Positions 18,430 through 41,018 of a stretch of 64,000 nucleotides of DNA are shown here, in pieces. The first letter of the stretch is position 1; each line of letters starts with the position of its first letter. The notes beneath the pieces are model-generated. The model did no database searches and was not told the DNA's origin. It saw only the letters and a program-made list of their open reading frames with translations. This DNA is from Gammaproteobacteria bacterium. Lineage in GTDB: Bacteria; Pseudomonadota; Gammaproteobacteria; Pseudomonadales; JADFDG01. A program made the position numbers and the translations under genes. The stretch spans positions 24,986 through 88,985 of the forward strand of contig JADFDG010000008.1 of the NCBI GenBank assembly GCA_018262975.1. The letters are read 5' to 3'.

Positions 18430-18441
18430 CGCTGCGCTCGC

Positions 18442-20499
18442 TCAGCGAGAGACGGCACGCTCCAGCGCCTGGTAGTAGTCCGCGTATTTCTTCCTGAACC
18501 GCCCCGTACTGTTTTCCGCGGCGCACTTGTACAACGCACGCGTCTCGGGCAGGCCTTCCCAGTCCGGCCGGCACTGCACCCGGTGCGCGGCCAGGTCGGC
18601 CTCGCGGCAAACGCCCTGCGCAATCGGCTGCTCGCCGCCGGGTTGCGACACGGTAAACCAGTGGCATTCGAAGTACTCCATCTTCTTGTCCGCGAGCGCA
18701 TCGTAGTCGGCCGGCGGCGCCGCGGCGGCTGGTAACGCCGCTGCCTGCGACGAGTCCGGCAGCGACGAAGGAGCGGAGCGCGCGACGTCCGGCTGCGGCC
18801 GGGGCTGTCGCAGCTCCTCCATCATCCGGCTTTCCTGCTGCATCGCCTTCTGCATCGTGACCAGCGTTTCCGCACCGGGCATTCCGGCAGCTGCCGCGGC
18901 CGAATAGTCGCCGCGCATGGCCGCCATGCCGGCGGCAAGCGCCGCGGCATTACGCTGCTCCTTCCTCTCTTCTTCTGCTTCCTCACGGGCCCGCCGGGCA
19001 TGCTCTTCGGCAACACGGCGCTGCTGTTCCGCCTTCTGCCGCGCCTGCTCGGCCAGGTCCTTCCTGAGCTTTTCATTCTCCAGGCGCTGCTTGTGCAGGC
19101 TGTCGATGCGCTGGCCCTCGTGGTAGCGGCACTCTTCCGGCGCGCCCTGCACCCAGCAGATGCCGGTGCCATGCGGCGTGCCATTGCCGGTGAAGCTGCC
19201 TTCGTAAACCGGACGCCCGTTTTCGAACAACTTCCCGGATGCGTAACTGCCGTCCGGGTTGAAACGGCCGTCAAACACCGGCTGGCCATCCGCCCCGCCG
19301 AGCTTGCCGGCGGCAAAACCGCCGTCACGGAATTCGCCGGTGAACGTCTCGCCGGTCCACCAGCGCACCGCACTGCCAACACCATGCGCCTTGCCGCCCG
19401 CGCAGGCGGTGCCGGTGTAGGCCCAGCCATCCAGGTTCATCCGGCAGCGCTGCGCGGCCACCCGTGCATTCCAGTCGGCGCGTTTCTTCTCAAGTGCAGC
19501 CAGCTGGCGATCCGCGGATGCACGGTTGGGCGACAGCGGATCGGCCTTCGCCAGCACCTGCTTGCAGGCTTCTTCGTCCCAGTTGCGGCAGGCGGCGGCA
19601 GGGCCGCGGATTTCCTGTGCGTAGCGCTCGGCCTCCAGCAGCAAAGGCAATGTCGGGCCGAGCCGCTCGTCCGTCGCGTACTGCATGCGATAGGTATGCC
19701 CGGGCTTGCGCCACACGCGGTAGTAGCCATGCTGGTGCGCCGCCATGTAACCGGCTCGGGACAAGTCATCCAACGAAGCGCCCGCCTCCAGCAGCAGCCG
19801 CACGACTTGGGCGGCGGCTGCGACGTCCTGCCTGCGCCGCCGGCTATCGGGCGGCGCCCAGTCGTCCAGCGAGACGGTGACGCCCGCGCCGAACCCGTCG
19901 CGCTCCGCGATGTCCTCGACACCACCTTTCGGCCGGCGCCCGGCGATCGGGCGCACCGTCCACTCCCAGGCAATCAGGGCCGCGCCAAACGCCGTGTGCA
20001 AGGCCCCGCTGCGCTCGCCGACATCGACGCCGTCGGCCAGGTGGGCGGCCACGGAGGCCGCATTGAAGTTGCCCGCCGCGACGGCCAGCGAGGTGGACCG
20101 CTGGTCGTAATCATAACCCCACTTCTCGTCATACCCCTGCCGCATGGGCTGGGGAACGCCAAGCCGCCCGCTGGATGCCCCCAGCGCCTTCCAGTAGCGA
20201 TAGGCCTCCTCTGTCGGCGCGCAAGCGAGCAGCGGGTACCACGAAACGGCCTGCGGCGTTTGCGCCTTGACGATGCGCGTGACAACGTCACGCCGGTCGG
20301 CCTCGACCCACTCGCACAGCATGCGTCTTGCATCCTGCGACACGCCGCCGTACTTGTTCGCGGAGAACTCCCCCTTTTCGAGCAACTTCAGGATGTCGGC
20401 ATCGCTCATGGCGCGGGTCTTTTCCACGCTGACGGCGTGAGCTGGCAGCGACAACAGGGCGACGACACCCGACAACATGAGCAACAGCGCGGCACGCAT
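18442..20499 (-). CDS. Secreted multi-module orphan protein (signal peptide, ankyrin-like segment, MORN-like repeats, charged coiled coil, Cys-containing C-terminal domain)
   Basis: Start at MRAALLLMLSGVVALLSLPAHA (20499). MORN-like GEFRDGGFAAGKL / GSFTGNGTPHGTG repeats. The stretch EKLRKDLAEQARQKAEQQRRVAEEHARRAREEAEEERKEQR is a predicted coiled coil. Confidence 0.7.
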   Translation of the reverse strand: MRAALLLMLSGVVALLSLPAHAVSVEKTRAMSDADILKLLEKGEFSANKYGGVSQDARRMLCEWVEADRRDVVTRIVKAQTPQAVSWYPLLACAPTEEAYRYWKALGASSGRLGVPQPMRQGYDEKWGYDYDQRSTSLAVAAGNFNAASVAAHLADGVDVGERSGALHTAFGAALIAWEWTVRPIAGRRPKGGVEDIAERDGFGAGVTVSLDDWAPPDSRRRRQDVAAAAQVVRLLLEAGASLDDLSRAGYMAAHQHGYYRVWRKPGHTYRMQYATDERLGPTLPLLLEAERYAQEIRGPAAACRNWDEEACKQVLAKADPLSPNRASADRQLAALEKKRADWNARVAAQRCRMNLDGWAYTGTACAGGKAHGVGSAVRWWTGETFTGEFRDGGFAAGKLGGADGQPVFDGRFNPDGSYASGKLFENGRPVYEGSFTGNGTPHGTGICWVQGAPEECRYHEGQRIDSLHKQRLENEKLRKDLAEQARQKAEQQRRVAEEHARRAREEAEEERKEQRNAAALAAGMAAMRGDYSAAAAAGMPGAETLVTMQKAMQQESRMMEELRQPRPQPDVARSAPSSLPDSSQAAALPAAAAPPADYDALADKKMEYFECHWFTVSQPGGEQPIAQGVCREADLAAHRVQCRPDWEGLPETRALYKCAAENSTGRFRKKYADYYQALERAVSR

Positions 20500-20564
20500 G
20501 CGTTTCTCCCCGGCAAACGGCTTCCAGTGATACGGATGACAGCACGCGATGTTGCCAGATCCGC

Positions 20565-20592
20565 AACAAAAAGGGGCGCCCTCCGGCGCCCC
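20565..20592 (-). terminator. Rho-independent terminator after the 354-aa secreted-orphan gene
   Basis: The minus strand reads GGGGCGCC-GGAG-GGCGCCCC followed by TTTTTGTTG. 8-bp GC stem. Confidence 0.8.
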
Positions 20593-20615
20593 TCCGTGTC
20601 GACGGAGCAGAACCG

Positions 20616-21680
20616 TCAATCGTTGAGATAACCCTTGATCACGTGCGTGTACACGCCGTTCATGATCTGGCCACCCTGCACCACGCCGGCCTTGAACTTC
20701 TCCGGGTCCGCGACCAGCACGTTGTAGGACTTCTTGCTGGTCATGGCGCTGGTGGCGCCGAACAGGTTGGCCAGCGGGATGACGATGCCGCTGTTGTCGG
20801 TTTCCTTCTGCTGGCGCAGTTCGCCCACGTCGTTGCTCACCGGCTTCATGTCGCGCGCCGTGATGCCGCCCATGTCACCGGCCAGGCGCATCTTGGCGTG
20901 GTAGATATGCAGGCGGGTCAGGCCACCCTCGAAGCCGAGCGCCGGCTTGGCGCCCACCTCGGCGGTGTCCTTGAACATCTTGTTGTTGCCGCTCGAGGAC
21001 ATCTCGGCGAAGTTCACCATGAAATGCGGCACCACCACCACGGCCTTGCCCTTCGCGGACAGTTCGTTCATCGCCCGCCAGTTGCCCAGCGACGCCGGGC
21101 CCTGGTCGCCCAGGCCGAGGTTCTCGTGGGTGAAGAACAGCTTGCCATCCGAAGGCGCCATCACGATGTAGTCGGAGCCGTTGTAGCCCTCGTGGTACAC
21201 GCCGTCCTTCTTCGGTTCGGCGAAATCGATCTCGTCGTAGGCCTTGTTGCCCGGCAGCTCCTTCCAGGTGACAACCGGCTTGCCGGTGGTCTTCAACTGC
21301 TCGACGAAATCACTGCACACCGCGTCGGTGGCGGCCTGCATGTCCTGGTTGGAGAAGTTGGCCAGCACCACCGACATGCTCACGCGCGCATCGGACTTGC
21401 AGCTGCTGTAGGAACCCGAGCTGCAGCCGAGGTTGGCCAGGCGGCTGTCGGTCGATGCAGTCGCGCTGTTCTCCAGGCGGAACGCCACCCGGCAGGTGGG
21501 CACGATGAACGAGTCGCCCTTGCGCACGATCTTGGCGTTCTGCGCCTCGATCTGCTTCTCCGGCTTCTCGATCAGGGCGTTGGGCGGAACCGTTTCTTCC
21601 GGGTCCTTGCCGGCGTGGGCCAGCGGGGCAGCGATGGCGAGCGCCAGCGCGAAGGCGGACAAGCGATGCAGTTTGTTCAC
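20616..21680 (-). CDS. Secreted orphan protein, no family recognised
   Basis: 354 aa. Signal peptide MNKLHRLSAFALALAIAAPLAHA. Native codon usage. Followed by a strong intrinsic terminator. Confidence 0.7.
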   Translation of the reverse strand: MNKLHRLSAFALALAIAAPLAHAGKDPEETVPPNALIEKPEKQIEAQNAKIVRKGDSFIVPTCRVAFRLENSATASTDSRLANLGCSSGSYSSCKSDARVSMSVVLANFSNQDMQAATDAVCSDFVEQLKTTGKPVVTWKELPGNKAYDEIDFAEPKKDGVYHEGYNGSDYIVMAPSDGKLFFTHENLGLGDQGPASLGNWRAMNELSAKGKAVVVVPHFMVNFAEMSSSGNNKMFKDTAEVGAKPALGFEGGLTRLHIYHAKMRLAGDMGGITARDMKPVSNDVGELRQQKETDNSGIVIPLANLFGATSAMTSKKSYNVLVADPEKFKAGVVQGGQIMNGVYTHVIKGYLND

Positions 21681-21801
21681 GGGGGACTCCTGTGTGCCGT
21701 GGGCCGGGGAACCGCGACGGCGGCAGGACCTGCCATCCGTGGCGCGTCACGGGAGTCTACGCAGACCGGAAGGCCAACGCCCCCCCTGATCACGGGGCCC
21801 T

Positions 21802-21897
21802 GTAGCGAGGGGGCAGAGCCGCCGATGAATGGCGGGAAGGGCGTCGGGGGCACGGCCCCCTCTCTACGATGGGCTGCGGGGCGCAGCCCCTCCCTAC
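21802..21897. repeat. REP triplet (21802-21825 plus and degenerate, 21844-21867 minus, 21874-21897 minus variant)
   Basis: Lies between the start of the secreted-orphan gene and the radA stop. The last unit contains the radA stop codon (CTA at 21894-21896). Confidence 0.8.
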
Positions 21898-23267
21898 AGG
21901 GCGTCGATGGCCTCGGTGAGCTTGTGCACGCCGATGATGTCCATGCCGGCAATGCCCCCTTTCGGCACGTTGGCATGCGGCACGATGGCACGGCGGAAGC
22001 CGTGCTTGGCGGCCTCGCGCAGGCGCTCCTGGCCGGACGGTACCGGGCGAATCTCGCCGGACAGGCCCACCTCGCCGAACACCACCAGGTCGTGCGGCAG
22101 CACGCGGTCGCGCAGCGACGACACTACCGCCGCCAGCAGCGCCAGGTCGGCGCTGGTCTCCGCGACGCGCACGCCGCCCACCACGTTGGCGAACACGTCC
22201 TGGTCTCCGACCATGATGCCGCCGTGGCGGTGCAGCACCGCCAGCAGCATCGCCATGCGGTTGTGCTCCAGGCCCACGGCCACGCGCCGCGGGTTGCCGA
22301 ACGGGGAGGCATCCACCAGCGCCTGGATCTCCACCAGCAGCGGCCGCGTGCCTTCCCACAGCACCATCACCACCGAGCCCGGCGCCGGCTCGCCGCGCGA
22401 CAGGAAGATGGCGGACGGGTTCTTCACTTCCTTGAGTCCTTCGCCGGTCATGGCGAACACGCCCAGCTCGTTCACCGCGCCGAAGCGGTTCTTGATGCCA
22501 CGCAGCGTGCGAAAGCGCGAATCGGATTCGCCCTCGATCATGATCGAGCAGTCGATCATGTGCTCGAGCACCTTGGGGCCCGCCAGCGAGCCGTCCTTGG
22601 TGACGTGGCCGACCAGGATCAGCACGGTGCCGGTCTGCTTGGCGAAACGCGTGAGATAAGCCGCCGCCTCGCGCACCTGCGACACGCTGCCCGGCGCGCT
22701 CTCCAGGCCGGACAGGTAAGCGGTCTGGATGGAATCGACCACCAGGATGGCGGGCTTCAACTTCGCCGCCTCGTTGCAGATGGCCTCGACATTGGTCTCG
22801 GCGAGCACGGCGAGCTTGCCGGTGGGCAACTGCAGGCGGTGCGCGCGCATCGCCACCTGCTGCAGCGATTCCTCGCCGGTGACGTACAGCACCGGCAGGC
22901 GCTCGGCGAGGTGGCAACTGGATTGCAGCAGCAGCGTGCTCTTGCCGGCGCCGGGGTGGCCACCGAGCAGCACCGCCGAACCGGCGACGAAGCCGCCACC
23001 CAGTACGCGGTCGAACTCGGCGATGTCGGTGGCGATGCGCGGCACCGCGGCCAGGTCGATGTCACCCAGCGACTGCACGCCGGATTTCGCACCGGCGTAG
23101 CCGCTACGCACGTCGGCGAAATTGGCGTCGCGCGCGGTACCGGTTTCCTTCGCCACCACGAATTCGCTGAGCGTGTTCCACGCGCCGCAAGCCACGCACT
23201 GGCCCTGCCACTTGCTGTGCTCGGCGCCGCATTCGCTGCAGACGTACGCGGTTTTTTTCTTGGCCAT
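21894..23267 (-). CDS. radA: DNA repair protein RadA/Sms
   Basis: Zinc finger YVCSECGAEHSKWQGQCVACGAW, Walker A GGHPGAGKST, KNRFG motif, Lon-like C-terminus. The stop codon TAG lies inside a REP unit. Confidence 0.96.
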   Translation of the reverse strand: MAKKKTAYVCSECGAEHSKWQGQCVACGAWNTLSEFVVAKETGTARDANFADVRSGYAGAKSGVQSLGDIDLAAVPRIATDIAEFDRVLGGGFVAGSAVLLGGHPGAGKSTLLLQSSCHLAERLPVLYVTGEESLQQVAMRAHRLQLPTGKLAVLAETNVEAICNEAAKLKPAILVVDSIQTAYLSGLESAPGSVSQVREAAAYLTRFAKQTGTVLILVGHVTKDGSLAGPKVLEHMIDCSIMIEGESDSRFRTLRGIKNRFGAVNELGVFAMTGEGLKEVKNPSAIFLSRGEPAPGSVVMVLWEGTRPLLVEIQALVDASPFGNPRRVAVGLEHNRMAMLLAVLHRHGGIMVGDQDVFANVVGGVRVAETSADLALLAAVVSSLRDRVLPHDLVVFGEVGLSGEIRPVPSGQERLREAAKHGFRRAIVPHANVPKGGIAGMDIIGVHKLTEAIDAL

Positions 23268-27508: not shown

Positions 27509-27579
27509 GTAGAGAGGGGGGTCATGCCCACGACTGCTCTTCCGCAAACCATCGATCGGGGGCATGGCCCCCTCTCTAC
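27509..27579. repeat. REP inverted doublet (27509-27533 plus, 27556-27579 minus)
   Basis: Lies upstream of the rpsF promoter region and of the 27705 gene. Confidence 0.85.
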
Positions 27580-27704
27580 AGGGGAGGAAGCAGGGCCGTT
27601 TATCCGGGTTTACGTTGCGTAACAGTGCCGCAGGTGGGTACCATCTCAAGACGCGCGTCACACTTTTCCAACTAAAACAATAAAATCAACGAGTTGGCAG
27701 AGCC

Positions 27705-28469
27705 ATGCACGGCCAGTCCCGCCCCCGTTCCCTGCTGGTACCCCTCCTTGCGGCCGCTGTCCTGGCCGCCGGGTGCCCGCTCGCGCTCGCGTCAGAGGAC
27801 CTGACCCCGCGCCCGCAGCGCGTCTTCACCGAGAAGCCGCGCATCGAGGACTACTCCGACTACAACGCCTTCCTGGTCGATATCATGGAATTCCGCCGGC
27901 AGAAGGCCGAGCGGGATGCCGCCCGCGCTGCGGCAAAAGCAGTCACCAGCGGCCCGGTCGACGACCAGGCGCTGGCCGGCGTGAACGGTGCCAACGGCGT
28001 CATCGACCCCGAGGTCTACCGCATCCGCGGCCCCGAGTCGCTGGAAGACGCGCTGGCCCGCGCGCGCAAGCTGCCGCACCCGGTCTACGAGGAACAGGAA
28101 CGCTACGGCCGCACCACCTCGCAGAGCTTCCCCATCACCGAGATGGAGCGCGACGACATGTCGGTGAACGACGTGGCCGGCGAACTGCATGACCTGCAGG
28201 CCGTGCAGCCCGAGTCGTACCGGGATCCGTCGGCGGAAGAGCACACCACCCGGGTAACCACCACCAACCCGGACAACGTCGACGAGACCCAGGCCAAGCA
28301 GGCTTTCGAGGGCACCGACGACGCCTACGAAGTGGCGATCGACACCGAGACCCGTTTCATCCGCGATTCCGACGGGCGCACCATCTGGGCGCCGATCTTC
28401 GTCAAGGACGAGGTGAGTTACACGGTGATCAACCGGCTGAACATCGAGGTGTCGGCGAACCACGATTGA
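27705..28469 (+). CDS. Acidic exported orphan protein (possible lipoprotein)
   Basis: 254 aa. Signal region LLVPLLAAAVLAAGCPLALA (either a lipobox LAAG-C or an SPase I site). No recognisable domain. REP doublets on both sides. Confidence 0.6.
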   Translation: MHGQSRPRSLLVPLLAAAVLAAGCPLALASEDLTPRPQRVFTEKPRIEDYSDYNAFLVDIMEFRRQKAERDAARAAAKAVTSGPVDDQALAGVNGANGVIDPEVYRIRGPESLEDALARARKLPHPVYEEQERYGRTTSQSFPITEMERDDMSVNDVAGELHDLQAVQPESYRDPSAEEHTTRVTTTNPDNVDETQAKQAFEGTDDAYEVAIDTETRFIRDSDGRTIWAPIFVKDEVSYTVINRLNIEVSANHD

Positions 28470-28479
28470 TGCGCGGCCA

Positions 28480-28529
28480 TCGGGGGCATGGCCCCCTCTC
28501 TACATGTAGAGAGGGGGCCATGCCCCCGA
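28480..28529. repeat. REP head-to-head doublet forming a perfect 50-bp palindrome
   Basis: TCGGGGGCATGGCCCCCTCTCTAC-AT-GTAGAGAGGGGGCCATGCCCCCGA, between convergent stops at 28469 and 28538. Confidence 0.92.
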
Positions 28530-35638: not shown

Positions 35639-38177
<2,539 letters not shown>

Positions 38178-38197: not shown

Positions 38198-38428
38198 TCA
38201 GGAACGCGCCCAGGACAGCAGCAGCGCACCGCCGATCATGCTGGCCAGGCCGATGACGCGCAGCGTGCGGTCATCCAGGTCCGCCAGCGTGCGCACCGAC
38301 TCACGGAACCGGGCCGGCGCCAGCGCCGGCATCAGGCCCTCGAAGACCAGGTACAGGGCAAAGGCCGCAAAAAGGTCCTGCCAGTCAAGTTCGGGCACGT
38401 CGGGAAGCCACCGGGAGTCTGCGGGCAT
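38198..38428 (-). CDS. DUF2065 (YjeT-like) small membrane protein
   Basis: ALYLVFEGLMPALAP...VIGLASMIGGALLL. It occupies the position of E. coli yjeT between hflC and purA. Start uncertain (ATG 38428, or GTG 30 nt downstream). Confidence 0.72.
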   Translation of the reverse strand: MPADSRWLPDVPELDWQDLFAAFALYLVFEGLMPALAPARFRESVRTLADLDDRTLRVIGLASMIGGALLLSWARS

Positions 38429-38453
38429 AAAAAACCCGGGCGGGGACCCGGGT
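38429..38453 (-). terminator. Terminator-like hairpin plus T-run abutting the DUF2065 ATG
   Basis: The minus strand reads ACCCGGG-TCCCCG-CCCGGGT-TTTTT, followed directly by ATG. Its role (terminator of upstream transcription, or attenuator) is unclear. Confidence 0.4.
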
Positions 38454-38482
38454 AATCGATTCTACCACCCCACCCCCACCCT

Positions 38483-38570
38483 GTAGAGAGGGGCAGACCC
38501 TTACCCGCCCTTCGTAGAGAGGGGCCATGCCCCCGACCTGCACCTCGTAGAGAGGGGGCCATGCCCCCGA
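38483..38570 (+). repeat. Three REP units in direct orientation (38483-38500 truncated, 38514-38536, 38547-38570)
   Basis: Left border of the low-GC RCC1 islet. Confidence 0.85.
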
Positions 38571-38646
38571 CCAGGCTGCCGATGGCAATCCACGGCGCTA
38601 AGGGGCAATGCCAAGGCCGCCATGCGGCGGACTCGCGGGCAGCAGC

Positions 38647-39927
38647 CTACTTCCACCGCCACAGGGATGCTTCGGGCGTCAGCCAGGTCTGCTCAGTGTC
38701 CTTATCCATCGTTCTGCCGGTTCCACGCACCGCGCCCAAGGCCCTGCCGAAGAAGACGGTCCGCCCATCAGCCAGTAATGCCGCACCACGAGCATGTCCA
38801 CCTACTACTGCAACAGGGGACTCCAGTTGGGCTACAAAACCTACCGAAGGCCAGTCCTTGCGCGCAAATCCAGCGATCGAGGGCCCACCGGCCGACTCAC
38901 CCCATGACCACAAACGTCCGCGGTCATCGGTTGCGTAAGCCGCAGGCCCGGAAGAGGCAATCGCCACAATTCTTCCGATTCCCGGAACACTGGCCAACCG
39001 GGAATTGATTTTCGCATCGCGATAACCTTGCCCTAACTGCCCTCCGGAATTGAATCCTATCGCATGCACCTTGCCATGGTTGTCCAGCAGGTAAGTCGTG
39101 GCGTTTCCAAGCGCGATCGAAACGACCGATATTCCTCCGCACTTAGTAAACTTGCTGATCCATGGTTCAGCCCCAGCTGCGCAACCGATCTTGCCCTGCA
39201 AATTGGACCCAATGAACCAGACCACCCCACCTGCAGTCAGCACAGCAATACTGGTTGAACCAACGAACACCTTGACTGCACCAGGTATCTCATCAATCAA
39301 AACAGGAACCGCCTGAGACTTCCCACTCTCTCCCGCTGAGCCTGAAACCCCAAATACACCGCGTTCAGACAATCCGAATCCATAGATTCGGCCTGCATCA
39401 TCCAATGCAACCGAGCGAGACCGGTCCGCTCCGATACTGACGATATTCTCCAAGCCAGGAACCTTGCGCGGTATCGACGAGTAGTCGCCTTCCTCCGCAT
39501 ACCCGAGCTGCCCGTACTCGTTCGATCCCCACGCATAGACACCCCCGTCGCGACCGAGGGCAATGAAGTGCCCTGCGCCACCCGCGACTTCGACGATGTC
39601 AGACAGCCCATCCAATCTGGTCGGAGTCGTCTGCAGTGCCCCCTGCGCTTTCGTAGCCAACTCACCATGCGCAGACACGCCCCAGCCCCAGACAGATCCG
39701 TCGTCTTTGGCACCAATGGTGGCGTCGCTGGCAAACGCCAGCTTTCGCGGCGCCAAATCCGGCCCGCGCGGCACTTCGAATTCCGTCAGGTCCGCAACTT
39801 CGCGCGCGCGATCACGTGCCGTGCCGTCACCGCAGCCTGCGACAAGCAGAAGTACGGCAACCGCCAGCACGACGTGCAACGGGCGAATTGACAGGGGCAA
39901 TGCGGGGAAAGAGGCAACATGAGGCAT
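38647..39927 (-). CDS. RCC1-repeat (beta-propeller) lipoprotein on a low-GC islet
   Basis: Lipobox LLLVAG-C. Repeated RCC1 signatures (GHFIALGRDGGVYAWGSNEYGQLG, HAIGFNSGGQLGQG, GRLWSWGES). Hand-counted GC is about 45-58% on four 60-nt lines, against 63-75% in hflC. Confidence 0.8.
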   Translation of the reverse strand: MPHVASFPALPLSIRPLHVVLAVAVLLLVAGCGDGTARDRAREVADLTEFEVPRGPDLAPRKLAFASDATIGAKDDGSVWGWGVSAHGELATKAQGALQTTPTRLDGLSDIVEVAGGAGHFIALGRDGGVYAWGSNEYGQLGYAEEGDYSSIPRKVPGLENIVSIGADRSRSVALDDAGRIYGFGLSERGVFGVSGSAGESGKSQAVPVLIDEIPGAVKVFVGSTSIAVLTAGGVVWFIGSNLQGKIGCAAGAEPWISKFTKCGGISVVSIALGNATTYLLDNHGKVHAIGFNSGGQLGQGYRDAKINSRLASVPGIGRIVAIASSGPAAYATDDRGRLWSWGESAGGPSIAGFARKDWPSVGFVAQLESPVAVVGGHARGAALLADGRTVFFGRALGAVRGTGRTMDKDTEQTWLTPEASLWRWK

Positions 39928-40072
39928 AGCGCGCAAATCCTTTGAGCGCGTCAATGGCGGCGAGCCTTCCATGCGCAAGGGCGCGCGCCATCCGACGAAT
40001 CCTGGTGGCTTACGCTAGCGCATGTTTCCGGGGCGGAGGAAGGGAAACAAGAGCGAGGGGTATAACGGCCAT

Positions 40073-40139
40073 GTAGAGAGGGGGCCTTGCCCCCGACCGG
40101 TAAAGGGCAAGAGCGTCGGGGGCATGGCCCCCTCTCTAC
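40073..40139. repeat. REP inverted doublet (40073-40096 plus, 40116-40139 minus)
   Basis: Right border of the RCC1 islet, just downstream of the hflC stop. Confidence 0.88.
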
Positions 40140-40163
40140 GAAGGGCGAAAGGCGAAGGGCGGG

Positions 40164-41018
40164 TCAGCGCATCTGCTTGAAGAACGGGTTGTCCGGCTGG
40201 ATGACCATGACGTTCTCCGGGCCGGTGAAGGTTTCCCGGTAGGCCTGCATGGAGCGCCAGAAGTTGTAGAACTCCGGGTCCTTGCCGAAGGCCGCGGCGG
40301 CCACTTCCGCGGCCCGGGCGTCACCCTGGCCGCGCAGGCGCTGGGCTTCGCGGAAGGCCTCGGCCATCAGCACGGTGCGCTGCTTCTCGGCCTCGGCGCG
40401 GATCTTCTCGGCTTCTTCCTTGCCCTCGGCGCGGTGCTCGCGGGCCTCGCGCTCGCGCTCGGTGCGCATGCGGTCGAACACGGCGCCGACGGCGCTTTCC
40501 GGGTAGTCCACTTTCTTCACGCGGATGTCCAGCACGTCCACGCCGAACTCCGGCTTGGCGGACTTGCCGACGTCGGCAGTGAGCTCGGCCATCATCTCGT
40601 CGCGCTTGCCGGACACCACGTCCACCAGCGTGCGCTGCGACACCTTGTTCTTCAGGCCCTCGATCACCCGCTGCACCAGCAGCTCCTGGGCGATGGCGAG
40701 GTTGCCGCCCTTGGTGGCGGTGTAGAACTGCTGGTTGTCGACGATGCGGAAGATCACGAACGCGTCCACCACGAGGATCTTGTTCTCGTTGGTGAGGTAC
40801 TCGGTGGGACGGGTGTCCATCACCTGCACGCGGCCGTCGAAGCGGATCACGTCCTGCCACGGCAGCTTGGCGCCGAGGCCGGGCGCGAGGTCCGGGTTGC
40901 GGATTTCACCGAACTCGCGCAGCAGCGCGCGGTCGGTTTCCTTGACGGTGTACAGGCAGCTCCACGCCAGCAGCAGCGCGATGACGGCGCCGGTCATGCC
41001 CAGGGTGCGGGTATCCAT
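40164..41018 (-). CDS. hflC: Protease modulator HflC
   Basis: SPFH/band-7 protein, 284 aa, immediately after hflK with a 1-nt overlap. Confidence 0.93.
   Translation of the reverse strand: MDTRTLGMTGAVIALLLAWSCLYTVKETDRALLREFGEIRNPDLAPGLGAKLPWQDVIRFDGRVQVMDTRPTEYLTNENKILVVDAFVIFRIVDNQQFYTATKGGNLAIAQELLVQRVIEGLKNKVSQRTLVDVVSGKRDEMMAELTADVGKSAKPEFGVDVLDIRVKKVDYPESAVGAVFDRMRTEREREAREHRAEGKEEAEKIRAEAEKQRTVLMAEAFREAQRLRGQGDARAAEVAAAAFGKDPEFYNFWRSMQAYRETFTGPENVMVIQPDNPFFKQMR

Follow-up and report, generated by a model that had tools for sequence, protein, structure and literature searches.

The minimal mobile elements of Neisseria, which Saunders and Snyder are said to have described in 2007, are variable whole-gene cassettes that lie between conserved genes and are exchanged by homologous recombination in the flanks. 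The bacterial interspersed mosaic elements (BIMEs) of E. coli and the REP doublets (REPINs) of Pseudomonas are said to belong to systems of repetitive extragenic palindromic (REP) sequences and their associated tyrosine transposases (RAYTs), the REP/REPIN-RAYT systems, in accounts attributed to Nunvar in 2010, Bertels and Rainey in 2011, and Ton-Hoang in 2012. To our knowledge, the REPINs known so far carry no cargo. At the protein level, BLIP-II of Streptomyces exfoliatus is a secreted beta-lactamase inhibitor protein of the RCC1/BLIP-II propeller group (PMC9218822). Here we describe a block of about 1.7 kb with a single gene for an RCC1-like lipoprotein, located in a 64,000-nt stretch of contig JADFDG010000008.1 (the whole stretch is hereafter called the window) from an uncultured Pseudomonadales-like gammaproteobacterium. 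We consider it roughly 80% probable that this block, at approximately 38465-40160, is a recently acquired, strain-variable accessory islet in the conserved hflK-hflC-DUF2065-hisZ-purA string.

Horizontal acquisition of the islet gene, which a first-pass annotation of this DNA had proposed, is well supported because of the foreign composition of the gene, the empty sites in relatives, and the allele states of the site. Two of the arguments used in that annotation, from the flanking REPs and from the stop codon, did not survive. The gene has a GC content of 59.3%, against a genome mean of 66.9% (standard deviation 3.6 in 1281-nt windows; z = -2.1, lowest 4.3%), and its GC content at third codon positions (GC3) is 0.60, against a genome median of 0.875 and a value of 0.95 in the adjacent hflC. 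A codon-adaptation-like index of 0.27 (mean 0.60) places the gene in the lowest ~5%, and the propeller is its lowest-GC part, with GC3 values of 0.50-0.58 in codons 151-400. These profiles agree with the atypical composition that had been noted at first, and the four lines of sequence whose GC had then been counted by hand were exact (46.7, 58.3, 51.7, and 45.0%). The TAG stop codon, which had been called rare, ends 424 of 2810 crude open reading frame (ORF) calls (~15%).

Empty and Occupied Sites Between hflC and the DUF2065 Gene

The islet gene is absent from the site in all seven congeneric species. Two of these (G001 and G006) have hflC, a spacer of ~120 nt, the DUF2065 gene, and hisZ, and in the remaining five (G002, G003, G004, G005, and G007; loci L017-L021) hisZ lies ~20 nt past the hflC stop, without DUF2065. 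Because five of the seven congeners lack it, the yjeT-like DUF2065 gene is itself dispensable in the genus. Three closer metagenome relatives, with HflC proteins 84-87% identical to that of the window, are also without the block. On contigs L051, L052, L053, L054, L060, and L061, hflC is followed by a spacer of ~90-150 nt; DUF2065 comes next in L051-L054 and L060, and the next gene in L061 is a cut fragment without a Pfam call. Wherever the contig of a relative extends to the downstream gene, hflC and DUF2065/hisZ adjoin (the L061 contig stops short), and in the closer-relative contigs a CTGT directly abuts a TAGAAT box, a hairpin, and a T-run.

The decisive comparison is with a clade of contigs that are 94-97% identical in flanking DNA (L047-L050). 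In this clade, the 97%-identical contig L047 aligns by blastn to window positions 42000-40161 and 38482-37360 only, and it lacks exactly 38483-40160, in agreement with where the first-pass annotation had placed the inserted segment. L047, the seven congeners, and the three relatives at 84-87% identity thus supply the empty sites by which that annotation had proposed to check its claim, and with the atypical composition the claim withstands both of the refutations that had been named for it. Contig L050 (94% identical) is occupied, and its REP pair, leader, and gene are positioned as in the window. At least three states of the site therefore occur in lineages that are 94-97% identical: the window allele, an allele that keeps the leader, signal peptide, and tether but has a swapped propeller, and a gene-less allele.

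The gene-less allele carries 22 nt between CTGT and TAGAAT that are absent in the three nearest outgroups. The first 10 of these nucleotides equal the variant REP head of L048 and L049, two contigs that end inside a REP just past hflC and whose variant first REP has the same loop start as the window doublet; the remainder equals the G-rich stretch that closes the window block. When an L048-type proximal junction and the distal flank of the window are joined across their G-runs, the product reproduces L047 at 76 of 77 positions. From these junctions, L047 is probably a scar, that is, a secondary deletion through G-run microhomology, and less probably a virgin site that resembles a REP head by chance; the virgin-site alternative keeps some weight because G001 is also G-rich before TAGAAT.

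All relevant genes of the window are on the minus strand, in the order hflK, hflC, a spacer of 236 nt, the ORF of 426 amino acids, a spacer of 218 nt, the DUF2065 gene, hisZ, and purA. The features are as follows.

40164 to 41018, minus strand: hflC, the conserved gene upstream of the block (TIGR01932, 227 bits; Band_7; 74-82% identical in congeners)
38465 to 40160, minus strand: the whole lineage-specific block of ~1.7 kb (from blastn of L047 and the junctions read in relatives)
40073 to 40139, no strand assigned: inverted REP pair (REPIN-like doublet) past the hflC stop and ahead of the islet gene (24-bp hairpin, no U-tract)
39928 to 40072, minus strand: 5' leader of the islet gene (from blastn and alignment against the leader of the paralogue on contig C13)
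38647 to 39927, minus strand: islet ORF of 426 amino acids, RCC1-like lipoprotein (Pfam PF25390 above cut-off)
39832 to 39927, minus strand: codons 1-32, predicted lipoprotein signal peptide with lipobox LVAG/C, Cys32 (from the translation and a modelled helix at 16-31; lipobox conserved in the paralogues and in the homologues of genomes G008 and G298)
39736 to 39831, minus strand: codons 33-64, tether that links the lipid anchor to the propeller, modelled with low confidence and the last part with ~90% identity to the L050 allele (predicted local distance difference test, pLDDT, <50 at 32-55; identity profile; synonymous divergence, dS, 0.14)
38650 to 39735, minus strand: codons ~65-426, predicted seven-bladed RCC1-like propeller (from blade anchors, the AlphaFold model, and Foldseek), the segment that is swapped in the L050 allele
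38647 to 38649, minus strand: stop codon TAG of the islet gene (from sequence and translation)
38484 to 38572, plus strand: three REP units in the same orientation, with heads on the plus strand, the outermost of which (38484-38509) is degenerate
38434 to 38464, minus strand: TAGAAT box, terminator-like hairpin, and T-run directly before the DUF2065 gene (from a scan; conserved in L016, L022, L047, L051, L060, and L061)
38198 to 38428, minus strand: DUF2065 (yjeT-like) gene, the conserved downstream neighbour (PF09838, E = 2.6e-19)
36981 to 38177, minus strand: hisZ (identified by profile, as was PurA)

The hflC stop is the TGA at 40164-40166. At its distal end, the block adjoins the conserved TAGAAT box, behind which come an 8-bp GC-rich hairpin and a T-run extending to or into the annotated start of DUF2065. 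TAGAAT, hairpin, and T-run are kept in all relatives that retain DUF2065, down to 67% hflC identity, and the stretch at 38434-38464 marks the ancestral distal edge of the hflC-DUF2065 spacer. The tblastn alignments of DUF2065 to relatives begin at residue 11, and the true start of this gene is probably a few codons inside the annotated ORF. The hairpin with its T-run may act as the terminator of hflKC, the true start of DUF2065 lying deeper in the ORF. Within the block, the only Pfam-supported ORF is the RCC1 gene, which is preceded by an AAGGA 11 nt ahead of its ATG. The site contains no tRNA, and the block junctions show no target duplication. The first-pass annotation had also seen neither integrase nor transposase here, and there is none among the ORFs listed for the block, of which the islet protein alone was scanned against profiles. 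As a candidate for a known RNA element, the leader was rejected, as no Rfam family matched and the only hits were spurious miRNA-hairpin matches on the REP pair.

Another variable spot of the window lies between a PilZ gene and radA (18430-21900), where ~3.5 kb encoding two secreted proteins have no DNA match in most congeners; G004 matches over ~1 kb, and G001 has ~1.3 kb of other sequence.

A Lipoprotein with an Exchangeable Propeller

The islet product is predicted, from its sequence and a structural model, to be an exported lipoprotein consisting of a signal peptide with Cys32, a tether of ~30 residues, and a seven-bladed RCC1-like beta-propeller. Its translation starts with MPHVASFPALPLSIRPLHVVLAVAVLLLVAG, followed by Cys32. 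In the signal peptide, R15 is followed by the hydrophobic LHVVLAVAVLLLV and then by A-G-C32, which, as read from the translation, fits the lipobox [LVI][ASTVI][GAS]C and predicts lipidation; the lipobox Cys is aligned in all paralogues and homologues. Profile matches are above cut-off for PF25390, the RCC1-like domain (181 bits vs 150), PF00415 (93.7 vs 21.7), and PF13540 (74.8 vs 22). Seven blade anchors with the pattern G-x-[VILT]-[WYHVF]-x-[WFI]-[GI] stand at residues 77, 128, 179, 233, 285, 337, and 388, which are 51-54 residues apart. The AlphaFold (AF2) model, built from an alignment of 28 sequences, has a mean pLDDT of 75.8 and is confident for residues 60-345, with pLDDT >85 in the strands of blades 1-6 and a signal-peptide helix at 16-31. 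The best solved structures found by Foldseek are UVR8, HERC2, RPGR, and RCC1 (E-values of 1e-20 to 1e-23, template modelling (TM) scores of 0.60-0.74, ~330 columns), and a sequence search of the PDB, with 34 matches at E <= 1e-3, concurs with an RCC1-like fold. The initial reading of a 426-residue RCC1-type lipoprotein with a lipobox, encoded between hflC and DUF2065, agrees with the recomputed ORF, lipobox, Pfam matches, and neighbours. Among PADLOC profiles, none for a defence system matches the islet gene, and the PHROG matches of the protein are to generic RCC1 repeats only, with no phage affiliation.

The occupied contig L050 differs from the window in a strikingly uneven manner. In hflC, dS between the two is 0.09, and in islet codons 1-63 it is 0.14, with 89% amino acid identity. 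Identity falls sharply near codon 65 (window ~39735), and in codons 64-157 dS reaches 2.15 (saturated), with a nonsynonymous divergence (dN) of 0.36 and 59% amino acid identity. Because dN/dS is well below 1, both propeller alleles are functional genes, and their divergence long predates that of their hosts. The pattern reads as allelic replacement by recombination and not as in-situ hypermutation. In addition, the hflC gene of L050 has long stretches that are 100% identical to the window and a patch of 78-92% identity at 40270-40450, a mosaic beside the variable site that hints at recombination within the flanking gene. A protein from another sample (P0186) is identical to the islet protein at 423 of 426 residues. 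A search for more metagenome alleles with the N-terminal 170 residues as a query gave one unrelated fragment only, and exact-pattern scans of JGI metagenomes for the leader and for the hflC 3' end found nothing.

Two more members of the family are present in the source genome (G000), on contigs C11 and C13. One is intact and encodes 440 amino acids; the other is split over contig ends (C11:318700-319354; C13:1-60) by an insertion sequence (IS), which we take to be IS21-like, and is probably a pseudogene. C11 ends in the N-terminus of a transposase, with a helix-turn-helix and the start of an rve integrase core. All three members share the lipobox, a GC3 of ~0.6, and a tail of the type TPE-x-S-x-W-x-[KR]. 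In five congeners the C11/C13 site is empty, with a histone-like gene and the upstream region of an acyl-CoA dehydrogenase (ACAD) gene only 17-90 nt apart, and the paralogue locus is thus a second lineage-specific insertion in the genome, of the same composition. By blastn, the islet gene and the C13 paralogue have leaders that match at 78% identity over 144 nt, and the proteins are only ~31% identical.

Beyond this genome, a sample of 400 others from the order yielded family members in just two, G008 and G298, and in the genus the seven congeners have no member except for one weak match in G001. G008 has one family gene, beside a gene taken for parC by eye from its translation. G298 (40% GC) has a tandem pair between folK and cysE (locus L058, G298:C194, 6762-9468), the members of which are 82-95% identical over residues 41-160 and 21-58% identical thereafter; this pair repeats the modular pattern of constant head and variable propeller seen at the hflC site. 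Besides the lipobox, a linker motif and a W-rich C-terminal tail are common to the paralogues and the homologues of G008 and G298. No partner gene is conserved beside any family member, the contexts being hflC, aspS/ACAD, parC, and folK-cysE, and no stretch was conserved enough to build a family profile for a locus search. Searches of 5.8e9 proteins and of GTDB species genomes, and an exhaustive HMMER search over 1.84e9 cluster representatives, returned nothing above ~40% identity. The RCC1-like lipoproteins to which the gene belongs form a small gammaproteobacterial family with a patchy distribution.

REP Repeats and the Origin of the Islet

The REP unit is 25 nt long (GTAGAGAGGGGGCCATGCCCCCGAC) and occurs in 21 copies in the window and in 562 copies in the genome, which form 312 clusters, mostly head-out inverted doublets. 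The congeners have 34, 2, and 1 copies and, in four genomes, 0, and the REP expansion in this genome is massive and lineage-specific. The first-pass annotation had placed three direct REP units on one side of the islet gene and a REP doublet on the other, and the recomputation agrees, with three units (38484-38572) and an inverted pair (40073-40139). The 24-bp hairpin of the pair has a predicted RNA folding energy of -59.1 kcal/mol (z = -6.3), and the same doublet is present in L050. The flanking repeats and the REP-rich site had further been taken as evidence of transfer, and this part has to be given up. Framing by REPs is generic in this genome and carries no information on transfer, because framed segments show no excess of low GC and native genes are framed alike. 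Among the 137 segments of 0.3-3.5 kb between adjacent REP clusters, a GC content <= 0.61 is found in 5, vs 8.5 expected at random. An acidic exported gene between rpsF and rlmB (window 27509-28529; gene at ~27.6-28.4 kb) is kept in six congeners at 67-74% nucleotide identity, and the two REP doublets that bracket it are specific to G000. In addition, no outgroup has a REP at the hflC-DUF2065 site. REP framing was therefore rejected as a marker of foreign DNA. A special link between the loop of the window doublet and that of the C13 doublet was likewise rejected, as many loops share the GCTCTTGC start.

The repeats might nevertheless have been the vehicle, with the block as the cargo of a REP unit that was moved by RAYT or by Campbell-style homology between doublets. 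The REP heads point outward at both block ends, the gene-less L047 retains 10 nt of the first REP head, and REP clusters stand at all four boundaries of the two RCC1 loci, at both of which the leader begins right after the REP doublet. Moreover, the exact 18-nt loop shared by the two doublets that bracket the second RCC1 locus recurs in no other pair among the 159, and the genome has a single RAYT-like Y1 transposase gene (C25:134513-134851), with doublets at 134340-134409 and 134931-135000. We still regard REP-mediated capture as quite improbable, given that framing is so common and extends to the conserved acidic gene with its G000-specific doublets. The hflC block also has no matching downstream doublet, just the three units in the same orientation, and no second copy of the cargo was found: besides REPs, the islet matches itself and the 144-nt C13 leader only, and the JGI scans were empty. 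Near-identical doublets flank not only RAYT but also the gene for a 750-residue lipoprotein of native composition (C25:41043-43597), and near-identical REPs flank C25:123657-126585, a REP-rich array with inserts of ~0.5-1.1 kb one of whose genes has an HPFxxGNGR (Fic-type) motif, as judged by eye alone. These C25 patterns could stem from local REPIN hopping or from segmental duplication, and doublets hopping locally into the next free spacer explain the RCC1, C25, and RAYT flanks more simply, without cargo transport. The broader notion that REP doublets are capture or exit points for single-gene cassettes, whether catalysed by RAYT or through recombination at extruded palindromes, is one to which we give little credence. 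On that view, the two RCC1 insertions, and perhaps further genes with twin doublets on their flanks, would have been inserted, duplicated, or excised by the joining of REP to REP. If true, it would give REPINs a gene-shuffling role, and we know of no description of such a role so far.

An origin within the genome, in which the gene at the hflC site or its 5' module was duplicated or converted from the C11/C13 paralogue locus, would account for the 78% identity of the 144-nt leader and first codons to the region upstream of the C13 gene, as against 31-38% protein identity in the coding parts, and for the GC3 of ~0.6 in all three paralogues. We find it improbable, however, as the divergence of the propellers is far too great for the duplication to be recent and the module swaps in L050 and G298 indicate separate histories of the 5' and 3' parts; since the family is missing from the genus apart from the weak G001 match, it would still have been imported. 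The gene could also be an ancestral member of the hflKC-purA string that was lost repeatedly, its composition being due to low expression or amino acid bias. Losses do occur, as L047 is best read as a secondary deletion and DUF2065 itself was lost in five of the seven congeners, but this explanation requires loss in all seven congeners and in three closer lineages, each of which has kept the ancestral type of spacer, which is short, lacks REPs, and carries the hairpin, TAGAAT box, and terminator. The GC3 of 0.60, compared with 0.95 in hflC, is also far beyond effects of expression level, and an ancestral gene is therefore highly improbable.

The preferred reading is that of a recently acquired accessory islet. 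Illegitimate or REP-assisted recombination would have brought the gene in from a donor of lower GC, and it would then have spread, been swapped, and been lost in the population by homologous recombination in the conserved flanks, as a 'minimal mobile element'; the REPs would be native repeats that colonised new intergenic DNA, and not the vehicle. A number of observations weigh against this reading or parts of it. The z of -2.1 is moderate, and 71 other regions of the genome are equally low in GC. A bias specific to the family, instead of recent foreignness, might also explain the odd composition shared by the three paralogues, and to some degree this alternative has to be allowed for; the G008 homologue is likewise below its host in GC3, and the G298 homologues match theirs. 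The donor search that had been suggested in the first-pass annotation yielded fold matches, and no donor lineage could be named from the searches described above, the lists of which are dominated by giant multi-repeat RCC1 proteins. In the leader, a simple promoter scan gave no sigma-70 consensus for the islet gene, its only match being the TAGAAT before DUF2065. The AF2 model is of low confidence in the tether (32-55) and in the last blade (348-426), which bears on the C-terminal end of the propeller. Function, finally, is read by analogy, and BLIP-II appears neither among the 34 PDB sequence matches nor among the 50 best fold matches.

With regard to function, the propeller may face the periplasm or the cell surface as a tethered protein-binding module, a placement of lower confidence that follows from analogy. 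Tentatively, the protein might be dispensable and might, in a manner similar to BLIP-II, bind or inhibit a protein that is external or acts in the periplasm, as part of antagonistic interactions. We are led to this possibility by the constant anchor with its replaceable propeller, the presence/absence variation, the IS-broken paralogue, and the patchy distribution. A housekeeping role fits poorly. In a milder form of the idea, the family would be one of polymorphic envelope binders or immunity-like proteins with a 'constant anchor, exchangeable propeller' design.

Comparison with Known Systems

The locus leaves current concepts unchanged, and its value is that of a well-documented case. It illustrates at base resolution how one accessory gene enters a conserved housekeeping operon, diversifies there, and leaves it without a mobility gene, in a lineage known from metagenomes only. 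It also draws attention to a small, uncharacterised family of gammaproteobacterial RCC1-like lipoproteins as a lead for envelope biology, and the exchange of propellers between near-identical strains is the signature expected of proteins in antagonistic interactions. A caution follows for genomes flooded with REPs, in which REP framing is no marker of horizontal transfer.

Among proteins, RCC1, UVR8, the RCC1-like domains (RLDs) of HERC2, and RPGR share with the islet protein the seven blades of ~51 residues, the G-x-V-x-x-W-G pattern, and the fold matches. These RLD proteins are eukaryotic and cytosolic or nuclear, and they serve as GTPase exchange, photoreceptor, or ubiquitin-ligase modules, whereas the islet protein is bacterial and is predicted to be exported and lipid-anchored. 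At ~20-24% identity to them, nothing suggests that it functions as a guanine nucleotide exchange factor. BLIP-II is the best functional analogy, since it comes from the same superfamily and is a stand-alone propeller, exported by a bacterium, that acts purely as a tight binder and inhibitor; by contrast with the islet protein, it is not a lipoprotein, and no target enzyme is encoded near the islet gene.

Among mobile systems, the REPIN-RAYT systems resemble the repeats of this genome in the 25-nt palindromic REP, the head-out doublets, the 562 copies, the single RAYT flanked by doublets, and the lineage-specific expansion, but here the REPs merely bracket the islet, as they do many native genes. 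Classical genomic islands and mobile insertion cassettes share atypical composition and strain-specific presence with the islet, which differs from them in its size of only 1.7 kb and in having no integrase, tRNA target, IS ends, or target-site duplication. Minimal mobile elements differ from the present case in that the host here is an uncultured gammaproteobacterium, the block carries host REPs, and the exchange through the flanks is inferred. The likeness to them lies in a one-gene block between conserved genes, without a mobility gene, with differing contents in close strains and a mosaic hflC flank. Overall, the islet is an ordinary but unusually well delimited accessory gene that is gained, swapped, and lost among close strains.

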